Positions 28,665-51,160 of a DNA stretch of 64,000 nt are shown piece by piece; the stretch's first letter is position 1, and each line of letters starts with the position of its first letter. The DNA is from an uncultured Spirochaetota bacterium. Its GTDB lineage: Bacteria; Spirochaetota; Brevinematia; Brevinematales; JAOACQ01. The position numbers were made by a program, and so were the translations under genes. The notes under the pieces are model-generated. The model was not told where the DNA came from and ran no database searches. It was given only the letters and a program-made list of their open reading frames with translations. The DNA lies in contig CAVYGN010000001.1 in NCBI GenBank assembly GCA_963768055.1, forward strand, positions 1,600,001 through 1,664,000, read 5' to 3'.

Positions 28665-30884
28665 CTATTTCAGCCTGTATAAGACCCTTCCCCTGTCGGG
28701 TCTGGAAAAATAATCGGTTTCCGTAATAACCGGTTTCTCCGGAATTACCGCCTGGCGAAGATCATCCCCCGCGACCCTGGCAAAGGGACCATTTTTATCT
28801 TCTAAAAAACCGATTGTTTTACTTTTGATCCTGCTCAAAACGGCAGTCCTGTCCCCCTGGATGGGACCGACTTCGATATAACGTATATTCTTATTTTTGA
28901 GAAATTCGATCCACTTTGCATAATCCGCCGGGTCCGGGATAAGGGGATAAACAGGTATATTCAATCTTTTCCCGTAGAGGGGATAGTATATATCGCAGAA
29001 TAAAAATCCGACCGATTCGTTTGTCCTTATATGTTCGTCGATGTATTGAGGGATCGAGCCGTAAAAAGCGAAACGGTGAACGTCCCTCTCCTTCTGTATA
29101 AAATAAACGGGTATTGCCAGGAAAATAACAAGTAAAACTATCCCTGATAAAAAAGGGATATATCTCTTGCCCTCTGAAATATCCTTCAAATAGCGTATTA
29201 TCGGGTTGTCGTAACAAAAGACCGCCCATAACGCGATCGCCAGGCCGGATATTGCCGCGTAGGGAACGGTTATAACCGCCAGATTGACAAAGATAGGCAG
29301 AAACATGCCGGGATTTTTATTTAATAAAGCCGTTAAACTGTTTATATCCGAAGAGAATACAAGGTTCCTGTTATACCGTATGGTATCTACAATGATAATA
29401 TTGAACAGCCCTGCAAGGACGCATAAGGCGGTAAGTGAGATTATTACCGGTTTTTTAATTTTCAGCCTGAATAAGGCTATTCCCGAGAGCACGCATAAAG
29501 CCGACATAAAAGGGAATGCGTACCGGAAAGCGAAACCGATCCATTGCGTCAGTGGATTATCGGCTGAAAACGGCGTGTTCCAGTATAGAAACACGGCGGC
29601 AAGGGAAAGGGCTGAAAAAAACAGAATAGAACCTCGCTGGAACCTGCCGGCCCTATTGAAAAATAGCAGTACGATCGAACCCAGGCTTAATACGGCGATC
29701 GCGAGGAAGGGAAGCTGGAGCCTTTTAATTATCTCTATACCGATGATTTTCCAGTGCAGAGGATTCCCCCAGTTGAAGAGATGGATCAGGGTAAGGTAGG
29801 ATAGATCCCCGGCGCTGACACTGCCCGGGAACACTGTTTTGCCGAACAGGCTGATTTTAACGAAAGCCAGGGGATTACCCGTATCGATAAGGTTTTTAAA
29901 ATACCAGAAAAACCCTATAAAAGGACTGGAGACGATAAAAAGGGCCAGGACGGGGATTGAAAATGAAACCGACCCGTATTTTTTTGTAACTAAATTAATA
30001 ATGATCACTGCAAGAAGCAGGACAAAAAGCAGGAACCCGTAAGGCAGCCCGGAAGCCTTGATCCCCAGGATCATTATTATTGAAAAAAACGTCATCAGGA
30101 CGCAATTTACATTGCTGGTTTTGTAATGGAGATAGACAAAATAAACTCCGGCCATGAAAAAAGCCGCAAAAGCCAGGTCGATATGAAAGGTGTTTACAGT
30201 ATTAAGGATCTCAGGTATTGATAGAAGCAGAATGGATGAAGAAATGCAGATGAATTTCCCCGCCCCCGCCTCCCTCAATATAAGATATACACTGAGTCCC
30301 AGAATAGCCCAGGAAATCAGGTTGGGCATGGCGGCGAACATGTCGCTGCCGAAGGGGAGGATGAAAAGCGAGCAGAGGACCTCCCAGTTATAGGGATATG
30401 GAATCTGAAGATGCCCCCACAGGGAGCCGCTCTGGTACCACGAAACTATCGCGGGAAGGTGAAAAGCCAGCGTATCGCTGTCGCCTGCGGGATACAACGA
30501 TAATTTTAATAAAAGCGAAGCGGATGCGATTAATATAAACAGTATCGGGAATTTTTTTTTGCCCTTCAAACCCGGAATTGTAAATTTTTTCGGGTGCAGC
30601 CGCAGACCGTTTTCATATAAAAGGAACGATCCTGCAAAAAAGAGCAAGAGCTCTGTCAAAGTCACCGCTGTTAAGTTAAACAAACCTGCTACGCCCAAAA
30701 TTATCCCGGTTAAGATCTCGAGGAGGCACCAGAAAAAAGCCAGGACCATCAGCCGGCTGGCAAAACCGTCGTTCGCCGTTCCGCGGGTCAGGCCGAGTGT
30801 AAAGAACAACGAAAGGGGGAGCGCGCCTGCCAGGATGGCTAAAAATAATAAAAGGGCCCGCAGTAAATGAAGGATTTCCATCAA
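28665..30884 (-). CDS. Large polytopic membrane protein, GT-C-like (lipid-phosphate-sugar dependent)
   Basis: Many TM helices, DSDTLAFHLP and YPYNWE loop, WYFKNLIDTGNP; directly after gtrA/gtrB-like genes. Confidence 0.6.
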   Translation of the reverse strand: MMEILHLLRALLLFLAILAGALPLSLFFTLGLTRGTANDGFASRLMVLAFFWCLLEILTGIILGVAGLFNLTAVTLTELLLFFAGSFLLYENGLRLHPKKFTIPGLKGKKKFPILFILIASASLLLKLSLYPAGDSDTLAFHLPAIVSWYQSGSLWGHLQIPYPYNWEVLCSLFILPFGSDMFAAMPNLISWAILGLSVYLILREAGAGKFICISSSILLLSIPEILNTVNTFHIDLAFAAFFMAGVYFVYLHYKTSNVNCVLMTFFSIIMILGIKASGLPYGFLLFVLLLAVIIINLVTKKYGSVSFSIPVLALFIVSSPFIGFFWYFKNLIDTGNPLAFVKISLFGKTVFPGSVSAGDLSYLTLIHLFNWGNPLHWKIIGIEIIKRLQLPFLAIAVLSLGSIVLLFFNRAGRFQRGSILFFSALSLAAVFLYWNTPFSADNPLTQWIGFAFRYAFPFMSALCVLSGIALFRLKIKKPVIISLTALCVLAGLFNIIIVDTIRYNRNLVFSSDINSLTALLNKNPGMFLPIFVNLAVITVPYAAISGLAIALWAVFCYDNPIIRYLKDISEGKRYIPFLSGIVLLVIFLAIPVYFIQKERDVHRFAFYGSIPQYIDEHIRTNESVGFLFCDIYYPLYGKRLNIPVYPLIPDPADYAKWIEFLKNKNIRYIEVGPIQGDRTAVLSRIKSKTIGFLEDKNGPFARVAGDDLRQAVIPEKPVITETDYFSRPDRGRVLYRLK

Positions 30885-31423
30885 TCAAAGGCCCCCGCTT
30901 TTTTTTTATTGAATACGAAAAGCTTGTTCAGCAGAAAAGCAATCGCCGCCAGGGGAAGTATCAATATGGCGCCCGAGATATAAGCGGACACATGCAGCAT
31001 ATCGAAAATTTTGAGCCCGCCTACGTTTATGCCGTATACTACCGCGTAAACCGCAAAAAAGCGGAAGATAAGGCGTATGTCATGGACATTGAAAACCAGC
31101 CTGCCGACCGTCTGGAAATTAAAAAGTATCCCCGCTGCGGTGCTGATTAAAGCGGCTATCGAATAATGCAATTTTAAAAATATCAGGAAAGCGAAGGCCG
31201 AATATCCGAAAAGAGTGTTGAGTCCCCCTACGATGAGAAAACGCAGGAACAGGACCCTCAATAATTTTTTAATTAAGGGCACTTCTAATAACCCCCGGAC
31301 AAGCCGGGATAAACGCCTTTTCAAGGCGGCAAGGTAGTGCCCATAGGGCGAATTGATAACAATTAGTACAATTTTATTCTTGAATTCAAAAATTGTTTTT
31401 GGAACCACCCTTAACTCAATCAA
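30881..31423 (-). CDS. GtrA-family flippase
   Basis: RFLIVGGLNT, NF...RLVF, FLLNKLFVF; four TM helices. Confidence 0.88.
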   Translation of the reverse strand: MIELRVVPKTIFEFKNKIVLIVINSPYGHYLAALKRRLSRLVRGLLEVPLIKKLLRVLFLRFLIVGGLNTLFGYSAFAFLIFLKLHYSIAALISTAAGILFNFQTVGRLVFNVHDIRLIFRFFAVYAVVYGINVGGLKIFDMLHVSAYISGAILILPLAAIAFLLNKLFVFNKKKAGAFD

Positions 31424-32351
31424 AATTCACTCTCTCTTTTTCAATGACCAGAGGCCTGTTTTTAACCTGCGTATAGATAGCACCGATATATTCGCCTATA
31501 ACGCCGATAAAAAAAAGCTGAACGGAAGAGAAGAAGAACAGGCCTATAACCAGGGGAGCTATTCCCACATTGAAATTCTGCCAGTAAATAAGCTTGTAGA
31601 CGAAATAACCTATCGCCACCAGGAGGCTGATTATAGCCACGCCGAAGCCGATAAAACTCGCAAGCCTCAGGGGTATTTTGCTGTGATTGACAAAGCCCAG
31701 CATGGCCATATCGTAAAGGGTGTAAAAGTTATTCTTGGTCTTTCCGCCGTATCTTTTCGGCTGGACATAAGGGATTTCCGCGCGGTTGAAACCGAGCTCC
31801 GATACAAGCCCCCTGAAGTACGGATAGGGTTCGTTCAAATTCCTGAGGACCTCTATAAATTTCCTGTCGTAAAGGCCGAACCCAGTAAAATTGCTTATAT
31901 GTTCGGATTCCGAAAGCTTTTTGATCAGGGCATAGTACATTTTCCTTACGGCGAATATCAGCGGGTTTTCCCTGCTCTTCTTCTTTACCCCTATGACAAT
32001 GCTAAAGCCCTCTTCCCATTTTTTAATAAAATCGGGTATCATCGACGGGGGGTCCTGGAGGTCGCAGACAAGCGATATGACCGCGTCGCCCCCCGCCTGG
32101 AGCATGCCATGGAACGGGGACCGGATGTGACCGAAATTGCGGATATTGACGATAATTTTTATATTTTTATCGGCGCCGGCAATTTTTTTCAGGATTATGA
32201 CCGTATTATCCGTCGAACAGTTATCGATAAATATATGCTCGTAGCGGTATTGAGGAAGTTTATCGAAGACCGACTTCACCAGCTTGTACACTTCCTCGAC
32301 ATTGTCCTGTTCATTGTAGCAGGCCGTAAGGACGCTTATAAGTTTTTTCAT
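31416..32351 (-). CDS. GtrB-like polyprenyl-phosphate glycosyltransferase (GT2)
   Basis: CYNEQDNV, RNFG, CDLQDPP, two C-terminal TM helices, GEYIG...VKNRP. Confidence 0.92.
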   Translation of the reverse strand: MKKLISVLTACYNEQDNVEEVYKLVKSVFDKLPQYRYEHIFIDNCSTDNTVIILKKIAGADKNIKIIVNIRNFGHIRSPFHGMLQAGGDAVISLVCDLQDPPSMIPDFIKKWEEGFSIVIGVKKKSRENPLIFAVRKMYYALIKKLSESEHISNFTGFGLYDRKFIEVLRNLNEPYPYFRGLVSELGFNRAEIPYVQPKRYGGKTKNNFYTLYDMAMLGFVNHSKIPLRLASFIGFGVAIISLLVAIGYFVYKLIYWQNFNVGIAPLVIGLFFFSSVQLFFIGVIGEYIGAIYTQVKNRPLVIEKERVNFD

Positions 32352-36846: not shown

Positions 36847-36878
36847 ATTATTTCCCTTGATGAGTAAAGCTTAGACAT
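36813..36878 (-). pseudogene. hicA: Truncated HicA-like toxin (21 aa)
   Basis: MSKLYSSREIISVLETLNFTI* matches the HicA N-terminal helix but stops before the catalytic GSH motif; start overlaps the hicB stop. Confidence 0.7.
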
Positions 36879-37080: not shown

Positions 37081-37197
37081 ATTTATCTCCTGTAAAAAAT
37101 GATAATGTTAATTGATCCTTAAATCAAGTTTTATTTTTGGTCATTAATGTTGGCTTCCATCAACAGTCTTTGACAAACAACAAAATTTGATAAGATT

Positions 37198-37226
37198 TTG
37201 ACAAGCAATTGTTAATTAATTAAAAT
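37198..37226 (+). promoter_or_regulatory. Sigma70-type promoter upstream of the RHS module
   Basis: TTGACA, 17 nt, TAAAAT. Confidence 0.5.
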
Positions 37227-37287
37227 CTAAGAATAAAAAAGTCTCAAGTTTTGATTATAGGGCTAAGGGAATTTTGTATTCGACGGA

Positions 37288-38829: not shown

Positions 38830-38854
38830 TAAGATAAGCAATAGTGGAGGGAAT

Positions 38855-39421
38855 ATGTTAAAATTTATGGGGTTTGTTATAATTGCTGTGTTATTGTTTG
38901 TAACATATTTTTTCTTTATTGGAAATCGTACAAAGATGTTTGCAGTGAAAGGATATGAAAATATTGTTAATTGGGAAGGTCCTGCTGAAAGAGATAGAAA
39001 AATAATTATAGATGATAATAATATTTTTATTCAGTATACAGTTTTATTCTTAGCAGATAGGATAAATTCATCATATTCTTATCTAACAATAAAAAACAAA
39101 ACAGCAAAAAATTTAAAAATATTAAAAGTTGAATTTTATCACATTTTTAAAAGCGAATCCTTAGAAAATACTTACACAAACAAAGGGTCTATCGGAAAAG
39201 ATAGATATACAGATATTCAACCTCCTTTAATATTAAGCAGTAAAATTAACCAGGCATTTTTTAATTTTACCTCCAATAAAGTGAGCAAGGGCTTCAACGT
39301 CGGTGATATAATTAACGTTATGGTGGAAGTAGAATATGAAGTTAACGGTCAGGTTTTAACCGTCAATGAAAATATTCCAATTGTTGTGCAGATGAGGAAA
39401 ATTCCAATTGCCTGGTTTTAA
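38855..39421 (+). CDS. Hypothetical membrane-anchored protein, putative cognate immunity protein
   Basis: 25 nt after the RHS stop, GGAGG RBS, N-terminal hydrophobic helix, same AT-rich composition as the toxin tip. Confidence 0.6.
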   Translation: MLKFMGFVIIAVLLFVTYFFFIGNRTKMFAVKGYENIVNWEGPAERDRKIIIDDNNIFIQYTVLFLADRINSSYSYLTIKNKTAKNLKILKVEFYHIFKSESLENTYTNKGSIGKDRYTDIQPPLILSSKINQAFFNFTSNKVSKGFNVGDIINVMVEVEYEVNGQVLTVNENIPIVVQMRKIPIAWF

Positions 39422-39919
39422 CAATACAGCACGTAAAGTGAAAGAAAAATAGATATGTCTCAAATTTTTTACTAGGAAAAGGTATTTTAACCTAATTTAT
39501 GTTATAACAATAATCATGTTGCTTAGTGAACATTGTTATTATTTTAAACATATGTCCTACGGCAACCTACTATCATCAGGTACAAAATTAAAAAAGGCAA
39601 GTTGATTTTCTTATCTATCTCAAATCCCGGTGATTTGAAGGGAAATATTGCATTTATCAGCCGTGATATGGGATTACAATGACAAATGGTATCATTGACA
39701 AAAGGTTCCCGGTCGGCATAAAATTCAAAGGCGTATATTTAATTTTGCAGGGAAATCAATAGCGCATATCGAAAGAAATGTCTTTTGCACAAAACCGGTA
39801 ATTAGCTTTCATTTACAGATTGTTGAAAGGTAATATGGTGTACGCCGGTTCTTCGTTTGACTAATAAAAAGCAATGCTATAAACAATTTGCATAAGAATA
39901 GATCTTCTTGAGGCATCGA

Positions 39920-40053
39920 ATGCCGAGAGTATTGTATATTAATGGTTTCCGGTTTTTCTTTTTCAATAATGAACGGAACGAGATGCCGCATTTCATATTA
40001 TAATCTCCGATCTGGAACTATTAAAGGAGGCATGGCATGGATACTTCGGTTAG
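39920..40053 (+). pseudogene. DUF4160-like gene with internal deletion
   Basis: N-terminus MPRVLYINGFRFFFFNNERNEMPH (stops at 40003) and out-of-frame C-terminus ELLKEAWHGYFG* (40015-40053) match both ends of DUF4160 proteins. Confidence 0.75.
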
Positions 40054-40291
40054 ATCAGGGCCGTTTTCAATATCAGCAAGAGCTATAGATGTAAAGACCA
40101 CAAAAGAAGAATTATCAGTATATCTCGAGGATGGAAGGAAATTGTCTGTCCCTCTGGAATGGTTTCCGAGGCTGCGGGACGCTACGGAAGCAGAGCTGGC
40201 TGATTGGGAATTTATCGGCGGCGGCATCGGCATTCACTGGGAAAAGCTTGACGAGGACATTTCAGTCCGCGGGTTGCTGGAATCGGAATAG
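40037..40291 (+). CDS. DUF2442-family protein (putative antitoxin)
   Basis: LEDGRKLSVPLEWFPRL...GGGIGIHWEKLDEDISV.GLL; GGAGG RBS. Confidence 0.88.
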   Translation: MDTSVRSGPFSISARAIDVKTTKEELSVYLEDGRKLSVPLEWFPRLRDATEAELADWEFIGGGIGIHWEKLDEDISVRGLLESE

Positions 40292-40414
40292 AAATCAGGA
40301 GAAATACCCTCTTGTTGGAGGTGTTTTTTCAATCCTAGAAGAAGAATTGAAGAATAAAATAGACCTTTTTACTGGTGAATCTGGGTGACAGATTGCATAT
40401 TGATCGATTCGGCC

Positions 40415-42226
40415 CTATTCGCTCTCATCAAGCAGGGGCACTATCATGTTCTCCCTTAATTCCTCCCTGCTCAGGAAGGGATAAAGATCCTCCAGGGGCT
40501 TGGAAATGATCCTGCCGTCCGGAAGCTTTTGAGAAGAAAGTTTCGGCTTGAATTCGTAATCCTCAGGAAGTTTAAGCTCGCAGATCAAGGGCCCGGCATG
40601 GCTTAAAACATCCTTTATCCGGTTTTTCAAATCTTTCTGGTTTTCAATAACCATTGACGGAATTCCGTAAGCGTCCGCTATTTTCCTTATATCCGGAAAG
40701 CCGACGCCCGTCGACGGATCCGTGCCTGTCCGCCTCCCGAAGAAATTGTCCTGGGTCTGCTTGATCGAGATATATCCGTTATTATTAAAATAAAATAATT
40801 TTATGGGAAGCCTGAAAGAAGATACCGTCATTAATTCCTGGATATTCATCTGAAGACTGCCGTCCCCGCAAAGGCAGATCACGTCTTTTTTATTGCCGGC
40901 GAAACATGCTCCTATCGCGGCGGGCAGATCGTAACCCATCGCGGCGCAGCCGGAATTCCAGATCACCCTCTGCCCTTTCCTGACAATCCCGTTCTGGAAA
41001 TACGCTATGCTGGGAGTGGCGTTGCCCGCAACAACTATTGCATTATCAGGGAGGCATTCGCTTAATACCGAACAAAAAAAGTACGGATCTATACGGGAAT
41101 CCTCTCGTTTGTTCTCTTCAGGAACGATAAAATACCTGTTTTTCCTTTCTATGCACCAGTCGAGCCATCCGGACCAATCAGGGAGTTTTAATCTGCCCAT
41201 AGCGCCTGTCAAATTATCAAGAAATGCTCCCGCATCGGCCAGGATAGAAATATCGGGGACCATCGTATTTTTCAGTAATTCGGATTTATCGATATCGACG
41301 ACGATCTTTTTTGCTGAACGCGCGAAATACCGGTATGAATAGCTGATCTGGCGGATATTGTTCCTCGATCCGACCGACAGCAATAAATCCGCGTTTTGCA
41401 GCGCGAAATTGCCGCTCCGGTTGCCTATTGTGCCGATCCTGCCGGCAAATAGAGGATTACCGGTTTCAATTAAATCAAAACCGTTAAAACTGCTGAGGAC
41501 CGGAATTTTGATTTTTGAGATAAAATTATTTAATTTATCTATCGCATGCGCAAGGCGGATTCCATGACCGGCTAAAAATACCGGCCTTTTCGATTCAAGA
41601 ATTTCTTTTATTACTGTTTGCAGCTGGGAACCGGATGGATTTATGCCGGCGTCTATCGGATTTTTTATAGTCGAATCAGATGACAGTTTGTTTTCATCTA
41701 CCTGGGCGGACTGCACGTTCATCGGTATATCCAGCCAGACGGGCCCCGGCCTCCCGGACAATGCTATTCCGATTGCTTTATCCAGTTCTTCACGGATTTT
41801 CATAGGATCGGTGACCATTTTTGCATACTTGGTAAGCGGCCTTACGACACTTATAATATCAGTTTCCTGATCGCCCAACTGCCTCAGGGAAATATCCGGC
41901 TGTGAGTAAATTGTGGTCTCGAATTTCACCTGTCCGGAAATATACAATACGGGGACCGAGTCGGTCCATTGACCCATCAATCCTGTCAGGGTATTTAAAC
42001 CTCCGGGGCCCGTAGTGACGTTTACAACTGCAAGTTTGCCTGTCGTCCTTGCATAACCCTCGGCGGCTATGGCGCAAGCCTGTTCATGGTGATTGAAAAC
42101 ACATTCTATACCCGGGCAAAAGCCGAACGCGTCATTGAGATGCATCGCTCCGCCCCCGGTTACCATAAAAACATGTTTAACTCCGATTTTATTAAGATAT
42201 CCCGCAATAAAATCAGCCAAACGCAT
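40415..42226 (-). CDS. ThDP-dependent acetolactate-synthase-like enzyme (YerE-like sugar branching carboligase)
   Basis: HHEQA, TTGPG, GDGS...NN ThDP motif; last gene of the dideoxysugar operon; no ilvN/ilvH. Confidence 0.88.
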   Translation of the reverse strand: MRLADFIAGYLNKIGVKHVFMVTGGGAMHLNDAFGFCPGIECVFNHHEQACAIAAEGYARTTGKLAVVNVTTGPGGLNTLTGLMGQWTDSVPVLYISGQVKFETTIYSQPDISLRQLGDQETDIISVVRPLTKYAKMVTDPMKIREELDKAIGIALSGRPGPVWLDIPMNVQSAQVDENKLSSDSTIKNPIDAGINPSGSQLQTVIKEILESKRPVFLAGHGIRLAHAIDKLNNFISKIKIPVLSSFNGFDLIETGNPLFAGRIGTIGNRSGNFALQNADLLLSVGSRNNIRQISYSYRYFARSAKKIVVDIDKSELLKNTMVPDISILADAGAFLDNLTGAMGRLKLPDWSGWLDWCIERKNRYFIVPEENKREDSRIDPYFFCSVLSECLPDNAIVVAGNATPSIAYFQNGIVRKGQRVIWNSGCAAMGYDLPAAIGACFAGNKKDVICLCGDGSLQMNIQELMTVSSFRLPIKLFYFNNNGYISIKQTQDNFFGRRTGTDPSTGVGFPDIRKIADAYGIPSMVIENQKDLKNRIKDVLSHAGPLICELKLPEDYEFKPKLSSQKLPDGRIISKPLEDLYPFLSREELRENMIVPLLDESE

Positions 42227-43318
42227 TTATAAACCCCTTTTATAGATTAAATCCTTCAATTCTTCGTTATAAGCGTAAGGGCTGTCTATATCCTCGATTT
42301 TTATAGGTTCATCCCTGTTAATCGCCTTCAATAAAACTTCACCGGACATTAATTCCCGGCATGAAATCTGGCCTTTCAGCAGCGGCACTGCCATATAAAT
42401 GTCATCGTTTATCAATGCATGCTTGAGGGTGTAACCGGCCGGCAGGTCGCGTTTCGCATATACGCCCCTGACCAATCCGTCCAGATATTCTATTTCAGCT
42501 TTACTTTGAGGCCGGAAATCGCTTCCCGGAGAACCGCTCATTTCTTTTGCTTTTTTAAAGGCCTTGATCCAAGTATCGATCTGGTGAGGCTGCGAGCAAT
42601 AAGGAGAAATTTTATAGCCCTCCTCTTCAATATCGATATGTCTTTCATAAGTTCTCGCGCCCTTTGCATATGCTATCAAAATTGAAGAAGCCCAATCATG
42701 GTATTCATGGGTCGAATAACCTATAACATGATTCGGATAACGTTTTTTCAGGAAATCGATCTGGTTTAAATTCAAATCCGCATCCTCCGACGGGTATAAG
42801 GACACGCAATGATTTATTGCCAGAGGTATATTTCTGTTTTCAAAAAAAGTCACCAGATCGTCCAGATCCTTCAGGGACGCCCCGCCGATCGAAACGATAG
42901 TCGGTTTTCTGCACTTTGCCACCGCTTCAATAAGGGGCCAGTCGTTCATGTCGGAACTGGCGATTTTCAGTATTTGAACCCCCAGGTCGCTGCATAAATC
43001 GACCGATTTTTCATCAAACGGCGTGCACATTGTTATACAGCCCGATTTTCTTGTTTCTTCGATCAATTTGCCGTATTCATCGACGCTCAGTTGCGTATCC
43101 AGAGTTTTTTTTATGTATCTTATATCGTTACGGTTAACATAATCTTTATGAATAAAATTTTTCACATCCCTGAATTGAAGTTTGATAGCCGCACGGACAT
43201 TGTTAAAACGTATAATTTTAGAAAATTCACCGATTATCTTCAACCCCCTGTCGACCTTTCCCCAGTGGTTGTTTGCCAATTCCAGAACAAATAAATCTTC
43301 AAAAAGATCCCTGTTCAT
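42227..43318 (-). CDS. NeuB-family PEP-dependent synthase with C-terminal SAF/AFP-like domain
   Basis: ELANNHWG, IKLQ, TPFD, KIASSD, HCVSLYP, GYSTH, ERH motifs. Confidence 0.9.
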   Translation of the reverse strand: MNRDLFEDLFVLELANNHWGKVDRGLKIIGEFSKIIRFNNVRAAIKLQFRDVKNFIHKDYVNRNDIRYIKKTLDTQLSVDEYGKLIEETRKSGCITMCTPFDEKSVDLCSDLGVQILKIASSDMNDWPLIEAVAKCRKPTIVSIGGASLKDLDDLVTFFENRNIPLAINHCVSLYPSEDADLNLNQIDFLKKRYPNHVIGYSTHEYHDWASSILIAYAKGARTYERHIDIEEEGYKISPYCSQPHQIDTWIKAFKKAKEMSGSPGSDFRPQSKAEIEYLDGLVRGVYAKRDLPAGYTLKHALINDDIYMAVPLLKGQISCRELMSGEVLLKAINRDEPIKIEDIDSPYAYNEELKDLIYKRGL

Positions 43319-43984
43319 TTAAACCTCCAAGTTTAATAACGTAAGCAGCTGGCGCATTTTATCCAGCCTGTAATCGGGATTTTCAGAATTTAACTCTTCC
43401 CGGTCTCCATATCCCCCGTAAAAAGCGGCGCTGATGCAGCCCTTATTCCTGGCTGAACGGATATCGGCGGCTGTATCGCCGATAACTACAGTTTCTTCCC
43501 CTTCTATCTGCCATTTATCAAGCAAATCCTGTATTATATCATCCTTTGAATCGTAACTTTTTACCCCGCCGCTCGCGGTAAAAACATCCTGGAAAAAGCC
43601 TCTCAGTCCGAATTTAACCAGTAGCCTTTCCGTCGGAATAAAAGGTTTATTGGTCGCGACAAATATCTTCTTTTTATTATGAACGATTCTTAAAATTTCT
43701 TCAACACCGGGATATATACGTGAGAAAGGATAATCAGACGTATCATAGCCTGTCCTGAAACCCGATAAAATTTTTTCCCTCATTTCAATCGATAAATCCG
43801 GGTCGATATTTTCGATCATTTTCTTTACCGGCGGTCCTATACGCAGCTTCTTTTTATTCTCCTCGCTTAAAATAAAACCGTTTTTATAAAAAGAAGATAC
43901 GATCGTATCGATAATATCCTGCGCAGTATCTATCAAAGTCCCGTCAAGATCGAAGACAAGGTTCTTTATTTTTATTCCGTTCAT
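43319..43984 (-). CDS. HAD-family phosphatase
   Basis: FDLDGTL, ATNK, IGDT..D motifs; ATG at 43984 lies just after the upstream stop. Confidence 0.9.
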   Translation of the reverse strand: MNGIKIKNLVFDLDGTLIDTAQDIIDTIVSSFYKNGFILSEENKKKLRIGPPVKKMIENIDPDLSIEMREKILSGFRTGYDTSDYPFSRIYPGVEEILRIVHNKKKIFVATNKPFIPTERLLVKFGLRGFFQDVFTASGGVKSYDSKDDIIQDLLDKWQIEGEETVVIGDTAADIRSARNKGCISAAFYGGYGDREELNSENPDYRLDKMRQLLTLLNLEV

Positions 43985-43988
43985 AGAG

Positions 43989-44870
43989 TTACTTGTCAAT
44001 GAGCAATTTATTGCGGTCGATAGCCGGCTTGTTATTTTCATAGTAAGCCATCAAATCTTTAATAGAATCATCAAGGGGGGTAAATCCAAGATTTTTCATC
44101 TCTTTCTTCAATCTGAAGTTGTCGCCGCTATATTCCATACCCATTCCCGGCAAAGCGGCCCGGATCGGAATATTCTTGCCGGACAATTTTAATATTTTAC
44201 CGGCTATATCCAGCAATTCGACAGCGCTGTCGGGAGTCACATTATAGGCGTGGAACAAAGGGGTTTCTTCGATGAAATATTCCAGGACCGGCATCAAATC
44301 GTCAATATACAGATAATCGAAACGCCTGTTTTGATTCATTGTCATAGGCAGGCCGAATATCGCTTTGCAGATCATATTCGAAATAAACCGGATGGCATAA
44401 TCCTCATATTTACCGAAGATCCCGAATATCCTTAAATCGTAAATATTACCGCCTCTTTCAATAAACCGGTCGATAACATATTTGGAGAGCCCATGTTCGT
44501 CAAGCGGTACGTGCGTGCCGGCGTATTCTTCTTTCATTTTCGGCTGATAGTATCTCATATCGTAAACCGCCCCCGAACCCGTGACGATCATCTTGCTGTA
44601 ATAATCGGCGTTGCGGGCCAGGTTGAAGAAGATCCTCGTATTGGTATAAAAGATCCCGGCGGGGTCCTTCGCGTTCCTGTGCCCGGGCTTTGCCGCCGCA
44701 TGGATTATAACATCTATTTTATTATTTTTGATATAATCCCTGACCGAATTTTCATCCATAAGCTCGAGTTCCTTATGGCCCGGCGCTTTGATAGTATACT
44801 TGCGGGCGAGGGCGGATTCCAGTATGTTCCTGCCGATAAATCCGCTGCCCCCGGTCAGAAATATATTCAT
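43989..44870 (-). CDS. NAD-dependent epimerase/dehydratase/reductase (extended SDR)
   Basis: TGGSGFIG, HAAA, GSGAVY, HGLSK (His replaces the usual Tyr of YxxxK), FDYLYIDD. Confidence 0.88.
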   Translation of the reverse strand: MNIFLTGGSGFIGRNILESALARKYTIKAPGHKELELMDENSVRDYIKNNKIDVIIHAAAKPGHRNAKDPAGIFYTNTRIFFNLARNADYYSKMIVTGSGAVYDMRYYQPKMKEEYAGTHVPLDEHGLSKYVIDRFIERGGNIYDLRIFGIFGKYEDYAIRFISNMICKAIFGLPMTMNQNRRFDYLYIDDLMPVLEYFIEETPLFHAYNVTPDSAVELLDIAGKILKLSGKNIPIRAALPGMGMEYSGDNFRLKKEMKNLGFTPLDDSIKDLMAYYENNKPAIDRNKLLIDK

Positions 44871-44880
44871 CTTTATACCT

Positions 44881-45579
44881 TCATTCCCATTCGTCGGTCC
44901 TGACGAATACTTCAGGGACTCCTTTATCGAGCATGTACCGCTTAAAATTAAGGGTCATGACCGGAGGCCCTGAAATAAAGAACACAGAGCCGGCAGAGCC
45001 GGCGGGGTTTTCGTTCAAAATCCTTGCTATATCGAGCATGCCCTTGTCTTCCTGGTCTATTATAAAAGCCCGGAATGACGGATTGATCTCTTTCGCTTTT
45101 GCAATCTCTTTATCATATATATAATAATCTTTCGACCGAACGCCTAAATAAAGCCTCGGATTTGCATACTCCGCGAACAGGCCGCTTGTAAAAAGGGAAA
45201 GGAAAGGCGTAACGCCGGTGCCTCCCGCTATAAATACGGTTTTATCTTTAGAATGGGGCCTGCTGAAAAGCTCTCCGTAAGGCAATTTAAGCCACAGGTT
45301 TTTTCCTGCAGCGATCTCTCCGGCCATCCTTCCGGTAAAAACCCCTTTTACAGAATAAGTGATTTTAATCATACTGTCGCTCTCGCAGGTCTGCATGGAG
45401 AAACACCTGGACTCGGGCCATGGGGCGGACGGGTCGTATTTATCCAGCGCAAGGTGGAGGAATTGGCCGGGCAGGTATTTATAGGGTTTATCCAGGCTCC
45501 GCATCGACAATGTGAATATTCCCGGAAAATGCGGGGTAACGCACTCGACCCGGGAAAGGTATTTTTTTATAATCGCCAT
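44881..45579 (-). CDS. FAD/NAD(P)-binding reductase (E3/DdhD-like, lacking 2Fe-2S domain)
   Basis: PGQF, RCFS, PYG, FIAGGTGVTPF, SGPPVM FNR-type motifs; directly after the E1 gene. Confidence 0.8.
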   Translation of the reverse strand: MAIIKKYLSRVECVTPHFPGIFTLSMRSLDKPYKYLPGQFLHLALDKYDPSAPWPESRCFSMQTCESDSMIKITYSVKGVFTGRMAGEIAAGKNLWLKLPYGELFSRPHSKDKTVFIAGGTGVTPFLSLFTSGLFAEYANPRLYLGVRSKDYYIYDKEIAKAKEINPSFRAFIIDQEDKGMLDIARILNENPAGSAGSVFFISGPPVMTLNFKRYMLDKGVPEVFVRTDEWE

Positions 45580-45581
45580 AT

Positions 45582-46886
45582 CTAACCCGTGTAATCTTTC
45601 ATAAAGTCGTTTACCGCGCTTTCTATGTACCGGAGCATATCCTCCGTCATGCCCGGGTATGTGCCCAGGAAAAAGGTATTGTTCATTATATAATCGGTAT
45701 TTACAAGGCTTCCCGCAGTCCTGTAATTGACCCCCTCGAAAAAAGGCTGCCTCGTCATATTTCCCGCGAAAAGATAACGGGTTTCGATGAGTTTTTCGTT
45801 CAAATGCCTTACCAGTGCGTCCCTTTTAAAGGGGGTCCCTTCCTTTAAAGTTACGATATACGCGAACCATGCCGGGTCGGAGTTTTCCGAGGCCTCGGGG
45901 ATTATAAAATATTTGTCGTACCTTCCGAAGATCCGGCAGTACGATTTGAAATTTTTCTTTCTTTTCTCGCAGAAATCCTTAAGCCTGTCCATCTGGGCGC
46001 TTCCTATGGCCGCCTGTATATCCGTCATCTTCAGGTTATAGCCGGCCTCCGAATAAACATATTTATGATCGTAACCCTCCGGCAGGGTCCCGAACTTCTG
46101 GCTGAACCTTTTTCCGCATGTATTGTTCTCGCCGCTGCCGCAGTAGCAGTCCCTTCCCCAATCCCGGAGCGACCTGATTATCCTGGCCAGTTCGTCGTCA
46201 TTAGTGACTACAGCCCCTCCCTCTCCCGTCGTTATATGATGGGCGGGATAAAATGATATAGTCGACATATGCCCGAACGTACCGGTATACATGCCCTTGT
46301 AAGTACTTCCGAAAGAGTCGCAATTGTCCTCGATCAGCCAGAGGCTGTTCTTTTTGCATATATCCGTTACGGCGTCTAAATTATACGGATTGCCGAGAGT
46401 ATGCGCCAAAAAAACGCACCTGGTTTTCGGGCCTAAGGCCTTCTCCAGCATTTCAATATTTATATTGTATGTGCCCAGGTCGACATCCGCAAAAACAGGG
46501 ATCAGACCGTTCTGGATAACGGGCGTAACTGTGGCCGGAAAGCCTGCCGCCACGGAAATAACCTCGTCTCCGGCCTTAAGCCTTTTATCGCCCAATCTTT
46601 TCGAAGTCAGGGCCGTAAGGGCAAGAAGGTTCGCCGAGGAACCGGAATTGGTAAGTATGACATTGGAAACCTGCAGAAAATCCGATATCTTTTCGGAAAA
46701 TTCCTCCGCGAAACGGCCTTCGGTCAGCCAGAAATCCAGGCTGGCCTCTATGAGTTTCAGCATTTCCCTCTCGTCAAAAACCCTTCCCGCGTACCTGACG
46801 ATATCCTTACCGGGCATGAATTTCCTGTTTTTATAATTATCTTCATAATAGCGTTTTACAAGCCCGGAGATTTCACTATCCAGCAT
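45582..46886 (-). CDS. rfbH: CDP-4-keto-6-deoxyglucose 3-dehydrase (E1)
   Basis: NSGSSANL, HTLGN, EDNCD, SFYPAHHITTGEGG, RDWGRDCYC...NTC, YDHKY. Confidence 0.95.
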   Translation of the reverse strand: MLDSEISGLVKRYYEDNYKNRKFMPGKDIVRYAGRVFDEREMLKLIEASLDFWLTEGRFAEEFSEKISDFLQVSNVILTNSGSSANLLALTALTSKRLGDKRLKAGDEVISVAAGFPATVTPVIQNGLIPVFADVDLGTYNINIEMLEKALGPKTRCVFLAHTLGNPYNLDAVTDICKKNSLWLIEDNCDSFGSTYKGMYTGTFGHMSTISFYPAHHITTGEGGAVVTNDDELARIIRSLRDWGRDCYCGSGENNTCGKRFSQKFGTLPEGYDHKYVYSEAGYNLKMTDIQAAIGSAQMDRLKDFCEKRKKNFKSYCRIFGRYDKYFIIPEASENSDPAWFAYIVTLKEGTPFKRDALVRHLNEKLIETRYLFAGNMTRQPFFEGVNYRTAGSLVNTDYIMNNTFFLGTYPGMTEDMLRYIESAVNDFMKDYTG

Positions 46887-46899
46887 CGATGCTTCCCCC

Positions 46900-49239
46900 T
46901 TATTCCAGCTTTTTATAATAAAACATAGTCCCTGTCCTGTCTGCTATTTTATAATTCTTATCAAGCAAAGTCTTTATAAATGAAAAATAATTATCGTCGA
47001 CCGGCGAAAGATCGTCGAGGAACACTTTCGGCCTTGAGGTTTCAAGAATGCTGCTAAGCCTCCCGGCGTCGTCTCGGGTAAATAATTCAATAAAACCCGG
47101 ATTAAAAGCGGATATTGTCCTGCTGTCGTTCAAATACATTCCTTCGAAACTCCTGGAGAGGACGATGATTTTTTCACCCCTGGCCGCATATTTTTTTATG
47201 AAAGCTATATTATCTTTAAGGAAGTCGCCCCCGCCGGAAGGAATTTTAGAAAACTCGAATACGCAGTTCCTTTTGAAAATCAGGTCGTAGATACCTCCCG
47301 AATTCGAGAAAATATCGATAAATGAAAACGAAAGAATGAAAATAATAGTCCCCGCAAAAAAAGCGGCGGATATATGACGGGACCTTTTTATTTCGGACAA
47401 AAGAAGGTCGGCGAATATGGCTATTAAAATAAAAAAATAGCTCCATACGTTGACAAGGTTCCAGTTATGGCTTCTTCCCCCATAGTAAACGAAGGTTCCC
47501 GTCCCGACAAGGCTTACAAGGAAGATAATCGCCGCATTTTTGTCGATCCTGTTGTTAATAAAAGCTGCAAAAGCATAAAGAAAACCGATTAGGTAAGTTA
47601 AAACTACTATATTCCAGGGGTGAAGAAGCGGCATCGGAAGCATACCGAAACCCAGGCCCGAAAAAAGGGAAATTGTTGAAAACATTTTCATTAAATCGGG
47701 GAAACTCCCGTAAAACAAGCGGATTGAAAGAGAGTATAATGCTAAAGAAATAAAGAGGATCAAGGCCGCGTTTATAAAATGAAGAATTATCCTGATTGCG
47801 GTTTTCTTAAAATCCAGGTTTTCCAGTTCCAGGTAGCATAAATAAAACAGCCATGATAAGAAAACGACAGTCCCTGTATCCGGGTTCCATAAAACCGAGA
47901 TTGAAGATAATATGAAAGAAAGATAATAAAGCCGTTTTTTCCTGTATTCAAAATATAAGGCTGAAATCATCAAAAGCAGCATGGGGAAGATAAACCTCAA
48001 GGGATGATACTGGAAATAAAAATCCCATGTCATTATTTTGCCGAAAAGATAGCCGAGAAACACGATCGAAGTGAAGCATAAAAAGACAATCGTCCTGTTA
48101 TCGATAATTTTATGCAGAAAAATCAAAAGGAACCCGAAAGACAGGCACAGCAGGACTGACATCACGATAGAAAAGCTAAGAATGGAGAGGCCGGTTAGGT
48201 TGAACAGGGGGACCAGAAATTGGGGATACAGACCGTAAGTATTTGTAAAACCGCTGACAAGCAGCGGAACGCCGGCGGCGGCCTGAGTCACGGAATAATA
48301 TACCGCGGAGAAGCTCCAGAGCGAGTTGAACATTCTTTCGGCGTCGAATTTAGTCATGAGATTTATAAAATTGAAATCGATATTAAATATGTTAATAGCC
48401 GGAATCAGGAGAAATATATATGCATAAACAGCAGAAAAAACAATTTTTAAACCCCTGTTTATCTTTCCATCAGCGGGATATTTCATTAAAAAGAAAAATA
48501 TTGCCGGGAATATTATTAGGCTGTAAATAGAAAACTGCAGGTATGGCAGGGATTTTAAAAAATAGAACTGGACGTTAAGAAGATTATGGTCGGGATCGCT
48601 GTGAAGGAGCCCTGCCAGGGCGAGACCCAGGAATGCCGGAAAGCTTGCCGGAAAGGCGATCGAAAATATCCGCCCGGTATTTTTACTGCTTTGTTTGCTA
48701 AAAACGGTTTTAAAAAAAATGTAAAAAACAAATGCAAATACAGGCAACAGGATAAGCCCTGTACCGAAGATCAATCTTTCAAGGGGCTTGGGCTGAAAAA
48801 TCCCGGGATCCAGGATCGATACTTCGGATGCTTTTTTCAGGATCGCCCCGATATCGGGATGGTAGAATTTTGTAATTATGAAAGCGATTATGATAAATAA
48901 TAAAATAGCCGAACACAGGCTGAATATAAAGTATAGGTATTCTCTTTTAAATCCGGTTAAGTCTTCGGGATCCGCAGGCGGGGTTTTAAATCCCGGCAGT
49001 TTTATAAATTGAAAAAACAGGGCCCATAAAAAAAGAATAGCCCCGAATTTAACGCTTTCCCAGCCCAGGGTCTTCAATTTATCCGCCCAATCGGCAGCCG
49101 CCGCTTTGCCTTTAAGCAATGAGCCGCCGTGAAGCAGCAGGCTTGAGAAATCCCTGTCGTTGATAACGGCGAGACCCAGAAGAAGAAAAAGGAATCCTGC
49201 AAGGAACAGGAAAACGCTGCGAGGTTTGATCACAATCAT
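46900..49239 (-). CDS. Large polytopic membrane protein, GT-C-like
   Basis: More than 15 hydrophobic helices, YG.YP and WNPDTG loops, soluble C-terminal domain. Start uncertain (49239, 49260 or 49302). Confidence 0.55.
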   Translation of the reverse strand: MIVIKPRSVFLFLAGFLFLLLGLAVINDRDFSSLLLHGGSLLKGKAAAADWADKLKTLGWESVKFGAILFLWALFFQFIKLPGFKTPPADPEDLTGFKREYLYFIFSLCSAILLFIIIAFIITKFYHPDIGAILKKASEVSILDPGIFQPKPLERLIFGTGLILLPVFAFVFYIFFKTVFSKQSSKNTGRIFSIAFPASFPAFLGLALAGLLHSDPDHNLLNVQFYFLKSLPYLQFSIYSLIIFPAIFFFLMKYPADGKINRGLKIVFSAVYAYIFLLIPAINIFNIDFNFINLMTKFDAERMFNSLWSFSAVYYSVTQAAAGVPLLVSGFTNTYGLYPQFLVPLFNLTGLSILSFSIVMSVLLCLSFGFLLIFLHKIIDNRTIVFLCFTSIVFLGYLFGKIMTWDFYFQYHPLRFIFPMLLLMISALYFEYRKKRLYYLSFILSSISVLWNPDTGTVVFLSWLFYLCYLELENLDFKKTAIRIILHFINAALILFISLALYSLSIRLFYGSFPDLMKMFSTISLFSGLGFGMLPMPLLHPWNIVVLTYLIGFLYAFAAFINNRIDKNAAIIFLVSLVGTGTFVYYGGRSHNWNLVNVWSYFFILIAIFADLLLSEIKRSRHISAAFFAGTIIFILSFSFIDIFSNSGGIYDLIFKRNCVFEFSKIPSGGGDFLKDNIAFIKKYAARGEKIIVLSRSFEGMYLNDSRTISAFNPGFIELFTRDDAGRLSSILETSRPKVFLDDLSPVDDNYFSFIKTLLDKNYKIADRTGTMFYYKKLE

Positions 49240-49240
49240 A

Positions 49241-50314
49241 TTAATGCCCGCTATTTTCATATTCTTCAATCTGTTTAAGGCTGACTTCAAGCATGTCTTC
49301 ATTATTCCGGTAAGCTTTTATCCAGCCGACTATTTTATCGATAGCCGTTTCAAGCTTCCAGCGCGGGCGCCAGTCTAGTTTATGCCTGGCCTTGGTGCAA
49401 TCAAGCTTCAGATATCCGGCTTCATGGGGCCCTTCGCCTGAAACTATCCTGTATCGGGCGCCTTCGCCCCATTTTTCACAGATTTTTTTTACTATCCATT
49501 CAACCTGCCTGGCGTCTTCATCGTCGGGCCCGAAATTCCAAGCCTCGGCGTAAAGCGGCCCTTCCTCATAGAGATTTTTTGAAAGCTGAAGGTAGCCTTG
49601 AAGCGGTTCCAGGACATGCTGCCAGGGCCGTATTGCAGCCGGATTTCTTATCAGTATCTCTTCGCCCTTTAAAATCGCCCTGACGATATCCGGTACCAGC
49701 CTGTCAACGGCCCAATCGCCGCCGCCGATAACGTTCCCGGCCCTTGCCGAGGCAATTGCAGTTTTATGGGATTTCCCGTAACCGGCAGGGTTGAAATATG
49801 AATTGCCGTATGCAGATACGACCAGCTCCGCGCAGGCCTTGCTGGAACTGTAAGGGTCGTACCCCCCGAGACGGTCGGACTCCCTGTATCCGTACACCCA
49901 TTCCCTGTTTGAATAACATTTATCGGTAGTTACAATAACGGCCGATCTTACGCTTTCGGTTTCCCTGACGGCTTCGAGGATATTGACTGTGCCGATCACG
50001 TTGGTTTCATAAGTCAGTTTGGGCTCCCTGTACGACTCGAGAACGAGGGGCTGGGCGGCCATATGGAAAACGATCTCGGGTTTCATCCCGGCCATCAGCC
50101 GCTTGAGGTTTTTATCGTCAAGGATGTTCCCTATATTGTGGTTGATAAATTTTTTCAATCCCGATATTTCGAAAAGCGAAGGGTCGGTGGGCGGTTCAAG
50201 GGACAGACCTGTAACCTCGGCGCCCATTTTATTCAGCCACATGCATAGCCATGAACCCTTAAAACCCGTATGCCCGGTTACAAATACCCTTCTGCCCCTG
50301 AAAAAATCATTCAT
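49241..50314 (-). CDS. rfbG: CDP-glucose 4,6-dehydratase
   Basis: VTGHTGFKGSW, HMAAQPLV, TTDKCY, DPYSSSK, RAGNVIGGGDW, RPWQHVLEP; ATG at 50314 overlaps the rfbF stop. Confidence 0.96.
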   Translation of the reverse strand: MNDFFRGRRVFVTGHTGFKGSWLCMWLNKMGAEVTGLSLEPPTDPSLFEISGLKKFINHNIGNILDDKNLKRLMAGMKPEIVFHMAAQPLVLESYREPKLTYETNVIGTVNILEAVRETESVRSAVIVTTDKCYSNREWVYGYRESDRLGGYDPYSSSKACAELVVSAYGNSYFNPAGYGKSHKTAIASARAGNVIGGGDWAVDRLVPDIVRAILKGEEILIRNPAAIRPWQHVLEPLQGYLQLSKNLYEEGPLYAEAWNFGPDDEDARQVEWIVKKICEKWGEGARYRIVSGEGPHEAGYLKLDCTKARHKLDWRPRWKLETAIDKIVGWIKAYRNNEDMLEVSLKQIEEYENSGH

Positions 50315-51083
50315 TCCAGACCTTCCAGCCGGCATTTCCGGAATTCCAGAGATTTTCGAGATCGATCTTGTCCCTGAGCGTATCCATCGGTTTCCAGAAT
50401 CCATGGTGCTTATAGGCCATCAGATGCTTATCTCCGGCGAGCCTTTCGAGGGGTTCGTGTTCCCAGATAGTCGAGTCCCCTTCTATGTAATCGAAAATCT
50501 GCGGTTCGAGAACAAAAAAGCCCCCGCTAACCCAGGCCCCGTCGCCCCTCGGCTTTTCCTCGAAAGAAAGGACATGGCCGCCGTCGTCAAGGTTAAGGGC
50601 GCCGAAACGCCCTGAAGGCTGTACCGTCGTCAGGGTTGCGTATCTTCCATGATCTTTGTGGAATTTTAAAAGTCCGGGAATATCGATACAGGCGACCCCG
50701 TCTCCGTAAGTCATCATGAAGGTCTCGTTTTCGAGGTATTTCCGGACCCTTTTGATCCTTCCCCCGGTCATGGTGCTCTGCCCGGTATCGATGAGCGTTA
50801 CATTCCAGGGCTCCACGTTTGTCTGATGGATTTTGATCGAGTTCTCCTTTAGATCTAAAGTTACATCGGACCTGTGAAGATAATAATTTGCAAAATATTC
50901 CTTGATCATGTAACCCTTATAGCCAAGGCAGATAATAAAATCGTTAAAGCCGAAATGTGAATATATTTTTAAGATGTGCCATAGAATAGGCTGGCCGCCG
51001 ATTTCAACCATGGGTTTCGGCCGCAGTTCTGTTTCCTCGGTAAGCCGGGTCCCGAGACCGCCGGCCAGTATCACTACTTTCAC
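50307..51083 (-). CDS. rfbF: Glucose-1-phosphate cytidylyltransferase
   Basis: LAGGLGTRL, PKPMVEIG, MTGGRIKR, TYGDG, GFWKPMDTLRD; GTG start at 51083 (or 51092). Confidence 0.96.
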   Translation of the reverse strand: MKVVILAGGLGTRLTEETELRPKPMVEIGGQPILWHILKIYSHFGFNDFIICLGYKGYMIKEYFANYYLHRSDVTLDLKENSIKIHQTNVEPWNVTLIDTGQSTMTGGRIKRVRKYLENETFMMTYGDGVACIDIPGLLKFHKDHGRYATLTTVQPSGRFGALNLDDGGHVLSFEEKPRGDGAWVSGGFFVLEPQIFDYIEGDSTIWEHEPLERLAGDKHLMAYKHHGFWKPMDTLRDKIDLENLWNSGNAGWKVWNE

Positions 51084-51160
51084 ACAATTCACCTGTTCCG
51101 TTAGGTTTGATAATACACCTAATTATATGCCGATTATCATGATAAGTCAAGAACCTGTCA

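Follow-up and report, generated by a model that had tools for sequence, protein, structure and literature searches.

A NeuB-like synthase encoded with a YerE-like carboligase in a spirochete CDP-dideoxysugar operon: a candidate route to long-branched sugars

Long-branched 3,6-dideoxy sugars such as caryophyllose, erwiniose and aurantose are rare surface antigens, and the donors of their side chains are known solely for aldolase-type gene clusters. In the unifying scheme set out in the accessible parts of PMC9306805, a YerE-like enzyme couples a hydroxylated 2-oxoacid with cytidine diphosphate (CDP)-4-keto-3,6-dideoxyglucose and a YerF-like reductase acts next, giving erwiniose in Pectobacterium atrosepticum, caryophyllose in Mycobacterium marinum, and gastriose; these routes have been partly demonstrated. 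The oxoacid there is supplied by a pyruvate aldolase (ErwI, MMAR_2331 or MygI), and the corresponding carboligases, ErwE, MMAR_2332 and MyGE, take hydroxylated 2-oxoacids, with pyruvate rejected by ErwE (PMC9306805, same parts). Excerpts of two further papers report that a related enzyme, JanthE, accepts long, hydroxylated 2-oxoacid donors together with ketone acceptors (PMC12188165, PMC12247030), its physiological substrates being stated as unknown (PMC12188165). The spirochete Spirochaeta aurantia makes aurantose, a long C-branched sugar of its glycolipid, presumably through an enzyme named 'SpirE', and an in-silico study has reported more than 200 YerE-like clusters (both from the excerpted text of PMC12247030). 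Here we describe a nine-gene operon in a 64,000-nucleotide stretch of DNA (the window) from an uncultured Spirochaetota bacterium, in which a YerE-like enzyme dependent on thiamine diphosphate (ThDP) is encoded next to a NeuB-family synthase and a HAD-type phosphatase.

On comparative-genomic grounds, we consider it probable (about 60%) that the operon makes a CDP-3,6-dideoxyhexose carrying a long hydroxylated 4-C side chain of the caryophyllose/erwiniose type, the product of the NeuB-like enzyme being the donor for the ThDP enzyme. A first-pass annotation of the window had already proposed that the 2-oxoacid used as donor by the ThDP enzyme is made by the NeuB-like enzyme, and this proposal was supported by linkage counts across genomes and by searches for a cytidine monophosphate (CMP)-ulosonate synthetase.

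The operon and its two central enzymes

The window corresponds to C1:1600001-1664000 of a 3.69 Mb genome in two contigs (C1 and C2; 41.5% G+C, 94.75% complete). Models for the FlcA flagellar collar protein, a BB0259-type lytic transglycosylase and an LIC_10271-type hydrolase, all spirochete hallmarks, found matches in the genome. Sequencing runs listed as containing this DNA comprised six of DNA type, from two studies, and none of RNA. The operon is real and intact. It consists of nine intact open reading frames (ORFs), all on the minus strand (51092..40415), in the order rfbF, rfbG, an 800-aa membrane protein, rfbH, an FNR-like reductase, a short-chain dehydrogenase/reductase (SDR), HAD, NeuB-like and YerE-like ThDP enzyme, with gaps of 0-13 bp or short overlaps, so that the order and tight packing described earlier were recovered at the same positions. 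The NeuB/ThDP and HAD/NeuB junctions have 0 bp between them, the SDR/HAD junction about 4 bp when the M20 start of HAD is used, reductase/SDR 10 bp, rfbH/reductase 2 bp and membrane protein/rfbH 13 bp, while the rfbF/rfbG and rfbG/membrane-protein junctions are short overlaps or a 1-bp gap. A promoter-like site, TTGACT-17-TATAAT (51122..51150, minus strand; 11/12), lies just upstream of rfbF and is the top sigma-70-like site of the region, as a consensus match only.

The predicted YerE-like ThDP carboligase (40415..42226) contains the three ThDP domains PF02776, PF00205 and PF02775, and alignment revealed the canonical cofactor motif GDGS...N. Its top match in the PDB was JanthE (8rph; 394.3 bits, 9.9e-117), aligned over residues 2-598 including the C-terminal tail, followed among solved relatives by 5ahk (257.5 bits, 2.6e-75), which we take to be PpYerE; the best chain of an acetohydroxyacid synthase (AHAS) reached 233.6 bits. 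PpYerE is listed among the solved YerE-like structures in the excerpts of PMC12247030. Being nearer to characterised YerE-like enzymes than to AHAS by these bit scores, and sharing an operon with rfbF, rfbG and rfbH, the ThDP enzyme is, as judged from its sequence, a predicted sugar-branching enzyme and not an AHAS.

A normal AHAS was the identity that the first-pass annotation had named as contrary to its proposal. The gene was considered as a spare AHAS and rejected: it scored 346.9 bits on the AHAS large-subunit model, under the cut-off of 538.35, and has no adjacent ilvN. Two true AHAS genes are located on the other contig (C2:742956 and C2:1114860; 857.8 and 675.1 bits), where the sole ilvN of the genome (C2:744665) directly follows the canonical ilvB.

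The NeuB-like gene (42227..43318) encodes a NeuB-family synthase predicted to depend on phosphoenolpyruvate (PEP), and is the proposed source of a 3-deoxy-2-ulosonate donor. The protein has a PF03102 TIM-barrel domain (138 bits) followed by a SAF-like C-terminal domain. It fell under the equivalog cut-offs of both NeuB (113.7 vs 399.65 bits) and PseI (115.1 vs 340.25 bits), and its closest solved relative was 3g8r (2.4e-67), true NeuB and PseI structures matching at 1e-16 to 1e-18. Residues were mapped through two alignments, of a clade member to Neisseria meningitidis NeuB (NmNeuB) and of the same member to the window protein. The equivalents of NmNeuB E25, K53, Q55, K129, S132, S154, S213, H215, E234 and H236 are retained, which presumably serve binding of PEP, metal and sugar, and that of D247 is not kept. 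A conserved C-terminal tail ending in RGL is a trait of the clade, which is well conserved and comprises at least 8000 relatives: all 8000 candidates that were scored had E<=1e-20, and the best 120 are 69-73% identical. Named members come from Microcystis and Terriglobales. By these sequence criteria the protein belongs to a separate clade of the NeuB family. A further PF03102 match, the third in this genome (C2:1382257), proved to be a 3-deoxy-D-arabino-heptulosonate 7-phosphate (DAHP) synthase. The genome of one relative (L099, G023:C39) holds a second, broken NeuB-like copy with seven in-frame stops.

Linkage across genomes and the search for an activating enzyme

The co-occurrence check suggested by the first-pass annotation was run on one genome per prokaryote species, using the best 80 of 81 confirmed loci with a relative of the NeuB-like gene. 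The relative was at least 50% identical in 62 of the 80 loci, and 44 of those 62 had at least 3 kb of sequence on both sides (full-flank loci). We found a ThDP homologue near the NeuB-like gene in 41/44 full-flank loci within 8 kb, in 38/44 within 3 kb and in 21/44 within 300 bp. Other partners within 8 kb were rfbH (32/44), rfbF (22/44), Methyltransf_23 (18/44) and an FkbM methyltransferase (13/44). The association with ThDP and rfbH genes extended over many phyla, carriers including Pseudomonas, Acidovorax, Acidobacteriota, Chloroflexia, Verrucomicrobia, Omnitrophota, Planctomycetes, Saccharibacteria, Actinomycetota and Bacteroidales, and over varied gene orders: ThDP-HAD-NeuB, NeuB-ThDP, SDR-HAD-NeuB-ThDP (the window) and HAD-NeuB-SDR-ThDP (a genome of the same genus). 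We estimate the probability of chance adjacency at well under 1%, AHAS-like genes being few per genome. A clustered ThDP gene was missing from 10 of the 62 loci, six of which are short of flank on at least one side, including L029, which is cut inside a ThDP gene. L047, one of the loci with no clustered ThDP gene, has almost 10 kb of downstream flank and 1 kb upstream; L070 has a ThDP relative of 28% identity, and L060 and L068 have none in view.

The same survey bears on two other ways of connecting the paired enzymes. In 12/44 full-flank loci no rfbH was seen within 8 kb, and the NeuB-ThDP pair persists in some of them, as would suit a ThDP enzyme that is a plain decarboxylase feeding an aldehyde to the NeuB-like enzyme; such chain extension would lead to a higher ulosonic acid, and the genes for the CDP-dideoxyhexose would be mere neighbours. 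The closest characterised relatives, JanthE and PpYerE, are carboligases acting on ketones, rfbH is present in the other 32 loci and an enzyme to activate the resulting acid is missing, all of which makes a plain decarboxylase highly improbable. The linkage would be accounted for equally well if the order of the two reactions were reversed, the ThDP enzyme first placing a short branch with an aldehyde, taken for example from glyoxylate or hydroxypyruvate, on the CDP-ketosugar and the NeuB-like enzyme extending it with PEP into a carboxylated branch; NeuB enzymes do require an aldehyde acceptor. To our knowledge, however, the known NeuB-family enzymes use free sugars and not nucleotide sugars, and the position of the HAD gene, immediately before the NeuB-like gene, speaks for a substrate or product that is small and phosphorylated. 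The erwiniose system, moreover, uses a pre-formed hydroxy-oxoacid donor and rejects pyruvate (accessible parts of PMC9306805), and we regard the reversed order as very unlikely.

Several variants of the cassette were observed. Among 401 genomes from the order of an Acidovorax carrier, eight had a NeuB-like relative; six of these eight matches lay in open frames of 504-510 aa, and the one that was scanned, L114, is a NeuB-cupin fusion. Five of the six frames (L113-L116 and L118) are adjoined by a ThDP gene in which SDG replaces GDG, the NeuB relative being about 40% identical, and this SDG recalls the CDG of JanthE. JanthE itself was not among them (417 bits to 8rph). A related cassette in a Spirochaetota metagenome-assembled genome (L079, 4800-16135) encodes a NeuB-cupin fusion of 507 aa and a HAD-SDR fusion of 527 aa, and its rfbF and rfbG are separated by a split transketolase. 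In the Pseudomonas putida group (L020, 17321-18172; L032 and L033), the cassette is located a few kb from flagellin and FabH-like genes and may belong to a flagellin glycosylation island.

The first-pass annotation had stated that no NeuA/KdsB, NeuC or ilvN is encoded in the window, which holds at the six-frame level, and NeuC (PF02350) had zero matches in the entire genome (94.75% complete). The genome search for a CMP-ulosonate synthetase that it had recommended was then run, and yielded a sole CTP_transf_3 match about 750 kb from the operon (C1:890948-891583; 233 aa, PF02348 128 bits). This protein reached 75 bits on KdsB models with cut-offs of 193-255 and is not KdsB-grade. A second NeuB, of canonical type (TIGR03569, 309.6 bits; C1:934753-935748, L006 9753-10748), is encoded 44 kb from the CTP_transf_3 gene, beside a short flagellin-N-like ORF and FlcA; this suggests an independent pathway to a nonulosonic acid, which may serve the flagellum. 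A flagellar nonulosonic acid would be a likelier client of the CTP_transf_3 enzyme than the product of the operon NeuB, and the proximity of the CTP_transf_3 gene to the canonical NeuB among flagellar genes means that it is not an obvious partner of the operon's NeuB.

The wider survey pointed in the same direction. Relatives of the CTP_transf_3 protein were detected in 2 of the 80 cassette loci (L062 and L068). In each of three whole cassette-bearing genomes (L035, L017 and L012) the sole strong CTP_transf_3 match was KdsB by its equivalog cut-off, located far from the cassette, and other matches scored 24-28 bits; with only KdsB strong, the NeuB-like product in these genomes would be without a dedicated activation enzyme. 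The outcome, in the window genome one distant CTP_transf_3 gene near a canonical NeuB, favours the reading of the NeuB product as a donor.

These data were also weighed against the possibility that the operon serves two sugars, which we judge improbable. The ThDP enzyme would then use pyruvate to make CDP-yersiniose, reduced by the SDR, while the NeuB-like enzyme and HAD would make, by way of a phosphorylated intermediate, an acid like 2-keto-3-deoxynonulosonic acid (KDN); the distant CTP_transf_3 enzyme would activate this acid for use in the same glycan. NeuB-family enzymes normally make ulosonic acids, and a pair of synthase and phosphatase recalls the routes through KDN 9-phosphate and N-acetylneuraminate 9-phosphate; both this usual chemistry and this pairing count in favour of two sugars, as does the single CTP_transf_3 gene of unassigned specificity in the genome. 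Furthermore, rfbF, rfbG, rfbH, ThDP and SDR genes together make up the published yersiniose gene set (accessible parts of PMC9306805). Against it stand the distance of the CMP-transferase from the operon and its place near a canonical-type NeuB among flagellar genes, the scarcity of its relatives in cassette loci, the three cassette genomes with KdsB only, and the tie of the NeuB clade to ThDP genes in 41/44 loci. In addition, the phosphatase of the KDN route is of the KdsC-like type, and HAD is of the capped HAD-IA type.

Proposed pathway and surrounding glycan locus

In the route that we favour, the first step would yield CDP-4-keto-3,6-dideoxy-D-glucose through RfbF, RfbG, RfbH and a short flavin reductase. 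The genes for glucose-1-phosphate cytidylyltransferase (rfbF, 50307..51092; TIGR02623 438.5 bits, cut-off 300.25), CDP-glucose 4,6-dehydratase (rfbG, 49241..50404; TIGR02622 497.4 bits, cut-off 278.45; likely start M31 at 50314, the match beginning at residue 34) and CDP-6-deoxy-4-keto-glucose 3-dehydrase (rfbH, or E1, 45582..46886; NF011936 671.5 bits, cut-off 423) are the three genes of the operon that exceeded curated equivalog cut-offs. This step rests on established family knowledge, save for the reductase, a 232-aa FNR-like NAD(P)H-flavin reductase (44881..45579) that we presume to substitute for E3. Of the Pfam families it matched PF00175 only, and weak matches to FNR-family NCBIfam models over residues 7-224 correspond to an FNR-like module for FAD and NAD(P)H. 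A PDB sequence search returned generic FNR-like reductases only. A homologue of 63% identity directly follows rfbH in two related spirochete loci.

In the second step, an aldose drawn from central metabolism, phosphorylated or not, would be condensed with PEP by the NeuB-like enzyme, the product being a 3-deoxy-2-ulosonate or its phosphate; we propose this role because of the family of the enzyme and its conserved PEP and metal residues. The phosphatase is the operon's sole helper gene, and its presence suggests that the substrate is an aldose phosphate of central metabolism. In the third step, this predicted HAD-IA phosphatase (43319..44041; likely start M20 at 43984) would strip the phosphate before or after coupling. 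It matched PF13419 (85.6 bits), contains a DxDGT motif and resembles phosphoglycolate phosphatase at 100 bits, under the cut-off of 225, and generic HAD-IA phosphatases only were found by a PDB sequence search. In 19 of the 22 other loci possessing HAD, its gene precedes the NeuB-like gene by 0-69 bp; in the spirochete locus L079 it is fused to SDR. Dephosphorylation could accordingly precede coupling, as the adjacency to the NeuB-like gene would have it, or follow it, as the fusion would.

In the fourth step, the ThDP enzyme would decarboxylate the ulosonate and attach the resulting acyl-anion equivalent at C4 of the CDP-ketosugar, a role assigned because of its homology to YerE-like enzymes and its gene linkage. 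The fifth step, reduction of the 1'-ketone, is the weakest. Its candidate is a 293-aa extended SDR (43989..44870; PF01370 86 bits) that may act as a side-chain ketoreductase analogous to YerF. Alignment of this protein revealed TGGSGFIG and the Lys of YxxxK, with the Tyr of YxxxK replaced (HGLSK). Homologues of 52-63% identity are present in the cassettes of L015, L016, L019, L037 and the same-genus genome G003, and the clade keeps a Tyr directly after the Lys of YxxxK. Most other cassettes have a canonical SDR of about 350 aa instead of the 293-aa type. In a sixth step, the sugar would probably be moved onto a surface glycan via polyprenyl phosphate by a GtrB-like glycosyltransferase (GT2) and a GT-C enzyme, both described below.

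A more elaborate form of this route is that the NeuB-like protein acts as a second, non-homologous 'DAHP-type' synthase on PEP and, for example, erythrose 4-phosphate, that the phosphorylated heptulosonate is coupled and that HAD strips the terminal phosphate from the nucleotide sugar, to give an undescribed 12-carbon sugar with a pentahydroxyhexyl branch. We hold this to be unlikely. Relatives do encode HAD fused to SDR, or a dehydroquinate-synthase (DHQS)-like enzyme in the place of HAD. If the DAHP-type form were true, cassette variants with HAD, a DHQS-like enzyme or a methyltransferase would represent a modular diversification of the side-chain end across more than ten phyla. A DHQS-like gene adjoins the NeuB-like gene in six loci (for example L014, 4790-5875) and would fit a DAHP-like phosphorylated product.

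Several findings weigh against the donor pathway and were considered in arriving at the probability given above. HAD was found in just 15/44 full-flank loci, so that dephosphorylation is not a universal step. The catalytic Tyr position of the SDR clade is occupied by His (the window, L019, L015 and L037) or Gly (L016). The E3 reductase, also known as AscD or DdhD, carries a plant-type 2Fe-2S ferredoxin domain, and neither a ferredoxin-domain match nor a Cys cluster was found in the 232-aa reductase sequence, whose role as E3 in forming CDP-4-keto-3,6-dideoxyglucose we infer. One CTP_transf_3 gene of unassigned specificity is held by the genome. The cassette occurs in 7/41 genomes (its own and 40 relatives) and, at 69% identity, in 1/4 genomes of the same genus. 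As it moves horizontally as a block, the 44 loci are not independent samples; and O-antigen-type loci often juxtapose genes for different sugars, so that linkage alone is no proof of one pathway.

The candidate GT-C enzyme is the 800-aa multi-helix membrane protein of the operon (46900..49302, likely start 49239), which matched no Pfam or NCBIfam family. Its AlphaFold2 (AF2) model had a pLDDT of 89.9 and a pTM of 0.86, and all 14 PDB matches obtained with Foldseek at E<=0.001 were GT-C enzymes (TM 0.31-0.44), namely ArnT, DPY19, PglB, AglB, AftA and OST STT3. From this predicted structure, the protein is a GT-C fold membrane protein. In the alignment of its family, P150-E151...E154 are conserved; the family counts 1295 representative relatives, of which some carry Laminin_G_3 at the C terminus, and the ESM Atlas gave unnamed clusters and a weak PMT_2 lead. 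The protein was absent from the other 80 loci at the thresholds used.

The GtrB/ArnC-like GT2 (31416..32351, minus strand; PgfS 187.6 and ArnC 122.7 bits, both under cut-off) is likely a polyprenyl-phosphate transferase for the branched sugar, and is 60-69% identical to a 315-aa GT2 whose gene accompanies the NeuB-like gene, at no more than 8 kb, in 24/44 full-flank loci. It adjoins a gene for a GtrA-like small membrane protein (30881..31423, minus strand; PF04138 52.4 bits) and one for a further large membrane protein. These neighbours suggest that the sugar is exported via polyprenyl phosphate. A 739-aa ORF (28665-30884) without a Pfam family is placed after GtrA and GT2 like a GtrC-type partner, and comparison with the 800-aa GT-C protein revealed no clear similarity.

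The operon is separated from GT2 and GtrA by an 8-kb stretch (32400-40400) that contains an IS21 element (istB, 33913-34659; istA-like, 34678-35925), several ORFs without a family and a DUF2442 gene (40037-40291). G+C falls to about 34-35% in the two end segments of this stretch (32-34 kb and 38-40 kb) and is 41-43% between them, compared with 41.5% for the genome. It resembles mobile DNA inserted in the glycan locus, and may have split one locus. Positions 1-32 kb of the window make up a locus for a surface glycan, where many glycosyltransferase genes are accompanied by rml genes, sulfate-activation genes and an ABC-2 exporter, and also by a 518-aa ORF (26097-27653) that has no Pfam family. 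Genes for a CysN/C-like fusion, CysD and CysC, together with a sulfate-type ABC importer, are located at 5565-12402 beside the glycan locus and hint that the glycan is sulfated; the window ORFs that were scanned included no recognisable sulfotransferase.

Implications and comparison with known systems

If the NeuB-like product does serve as the donor, a large uncharacterised branch of the sialic-acid synthases would gain a function, and annotations as 'N-acetylneuraminate synthase' would be wrong in thousands of genomes, including Microcystis. The natural donors of YerE/JanthE-like enzymes, which are of biocatalytic interest, would become predictable from gene context, and undescribed branched sugars could be predicted in spirochetes, in pseudomonad flagellin islands and in many uncultured phyla. 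We found no published description of a NeuB-fed variant, although the in-silico survey of YerE clusters and the JanthE paper, which were outside the reach of our search, may list NeuB-type neighbours; the supplement of PMC9306805 makes no mention of neuraminate, sialic, NeuB or phosphatase.

Among proteins of solved structure, the ThDP enzyme is most similar to JanthE of Janthinobacterium sp. HH01 (8rph, 8rpi and 8rpj) and PpYerE, at less than orthologue level, and the cofactor motif is CDG in JanthE, in contrast to the canonical GDG of the window enzyme. The yersiniose A pathway of Yersinia pseudotuberculosis (YerE/YerF) shares with the operon the acceptor pathway (ddhA-D equivalents), branching at C4 by a ThDP enzyme and ketoreduction, whereas YerE prefers pyruvate and gives a two-carbon branch, and neither NeuB nor HAD belongs to that pathway in the portions of PMC9306805 and PMC12247030 consulted. 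The synthase shares the PF03102 barrel, the SAF-like domain and the PEP and metal ligands with NeuB, PseI and LegI and with 3g8r, the Chromobacterium violaceum 'SpsE' for which only a structure is available. It differs from NeuB, PseI and LegI in scoring a third of their cut-offs, in having no equivalent of Asp247 and no NeuA or NeuC partners, and in being linked to a ThDP gene. As aurantose is known from a spirochete, a long-branched product is plausible in this phylum.

The closest counterparts remain the clusters for erwiniose (ErwE/ErwF/ErwI/ErwJ), caryophyllose (MMAR_2331/2332) and gastriose (MyGE/MygI/MygF), which have in common with the operon the genes for CDP-4-keto-3,6-dideoxyglucose, a YerE-like ThDP enzyme, an NAD(P)H reductase and a maker of a 4-hydroxy-2-oxoacid. 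The expected product, as in those clusters, would have a 4-C-(1-hydroxy-2-deoxy-3-hydroxy...) branch. The operon departs from them in its atypical SDR without the YxxxK Tyr, in its truncated E3 and, above all, in the oxoacid maker, which would be a NeuB-family enzyme with a HAD phosphatase and not a pyruvate aldolase. No pyruvate aldolase of the BphI or HpcH/HpaI type is encoded in the operon, and the only HpcH/HpaI-like match of the genome (C1:895373) is about 745 kb away. Condensation with PEP by a NeuB-type enzyme yields the same 2-oxo-3-deoxy-4-hydroxy motif, and would thus be a chemically equivalent replacement of the aldolase. In summary, what is new in the proposed pathway is the use of a PEP-dependent NeuB-like enzyme and a phosphatase in place of an aldolase; the chemistry itself is not new in kind.

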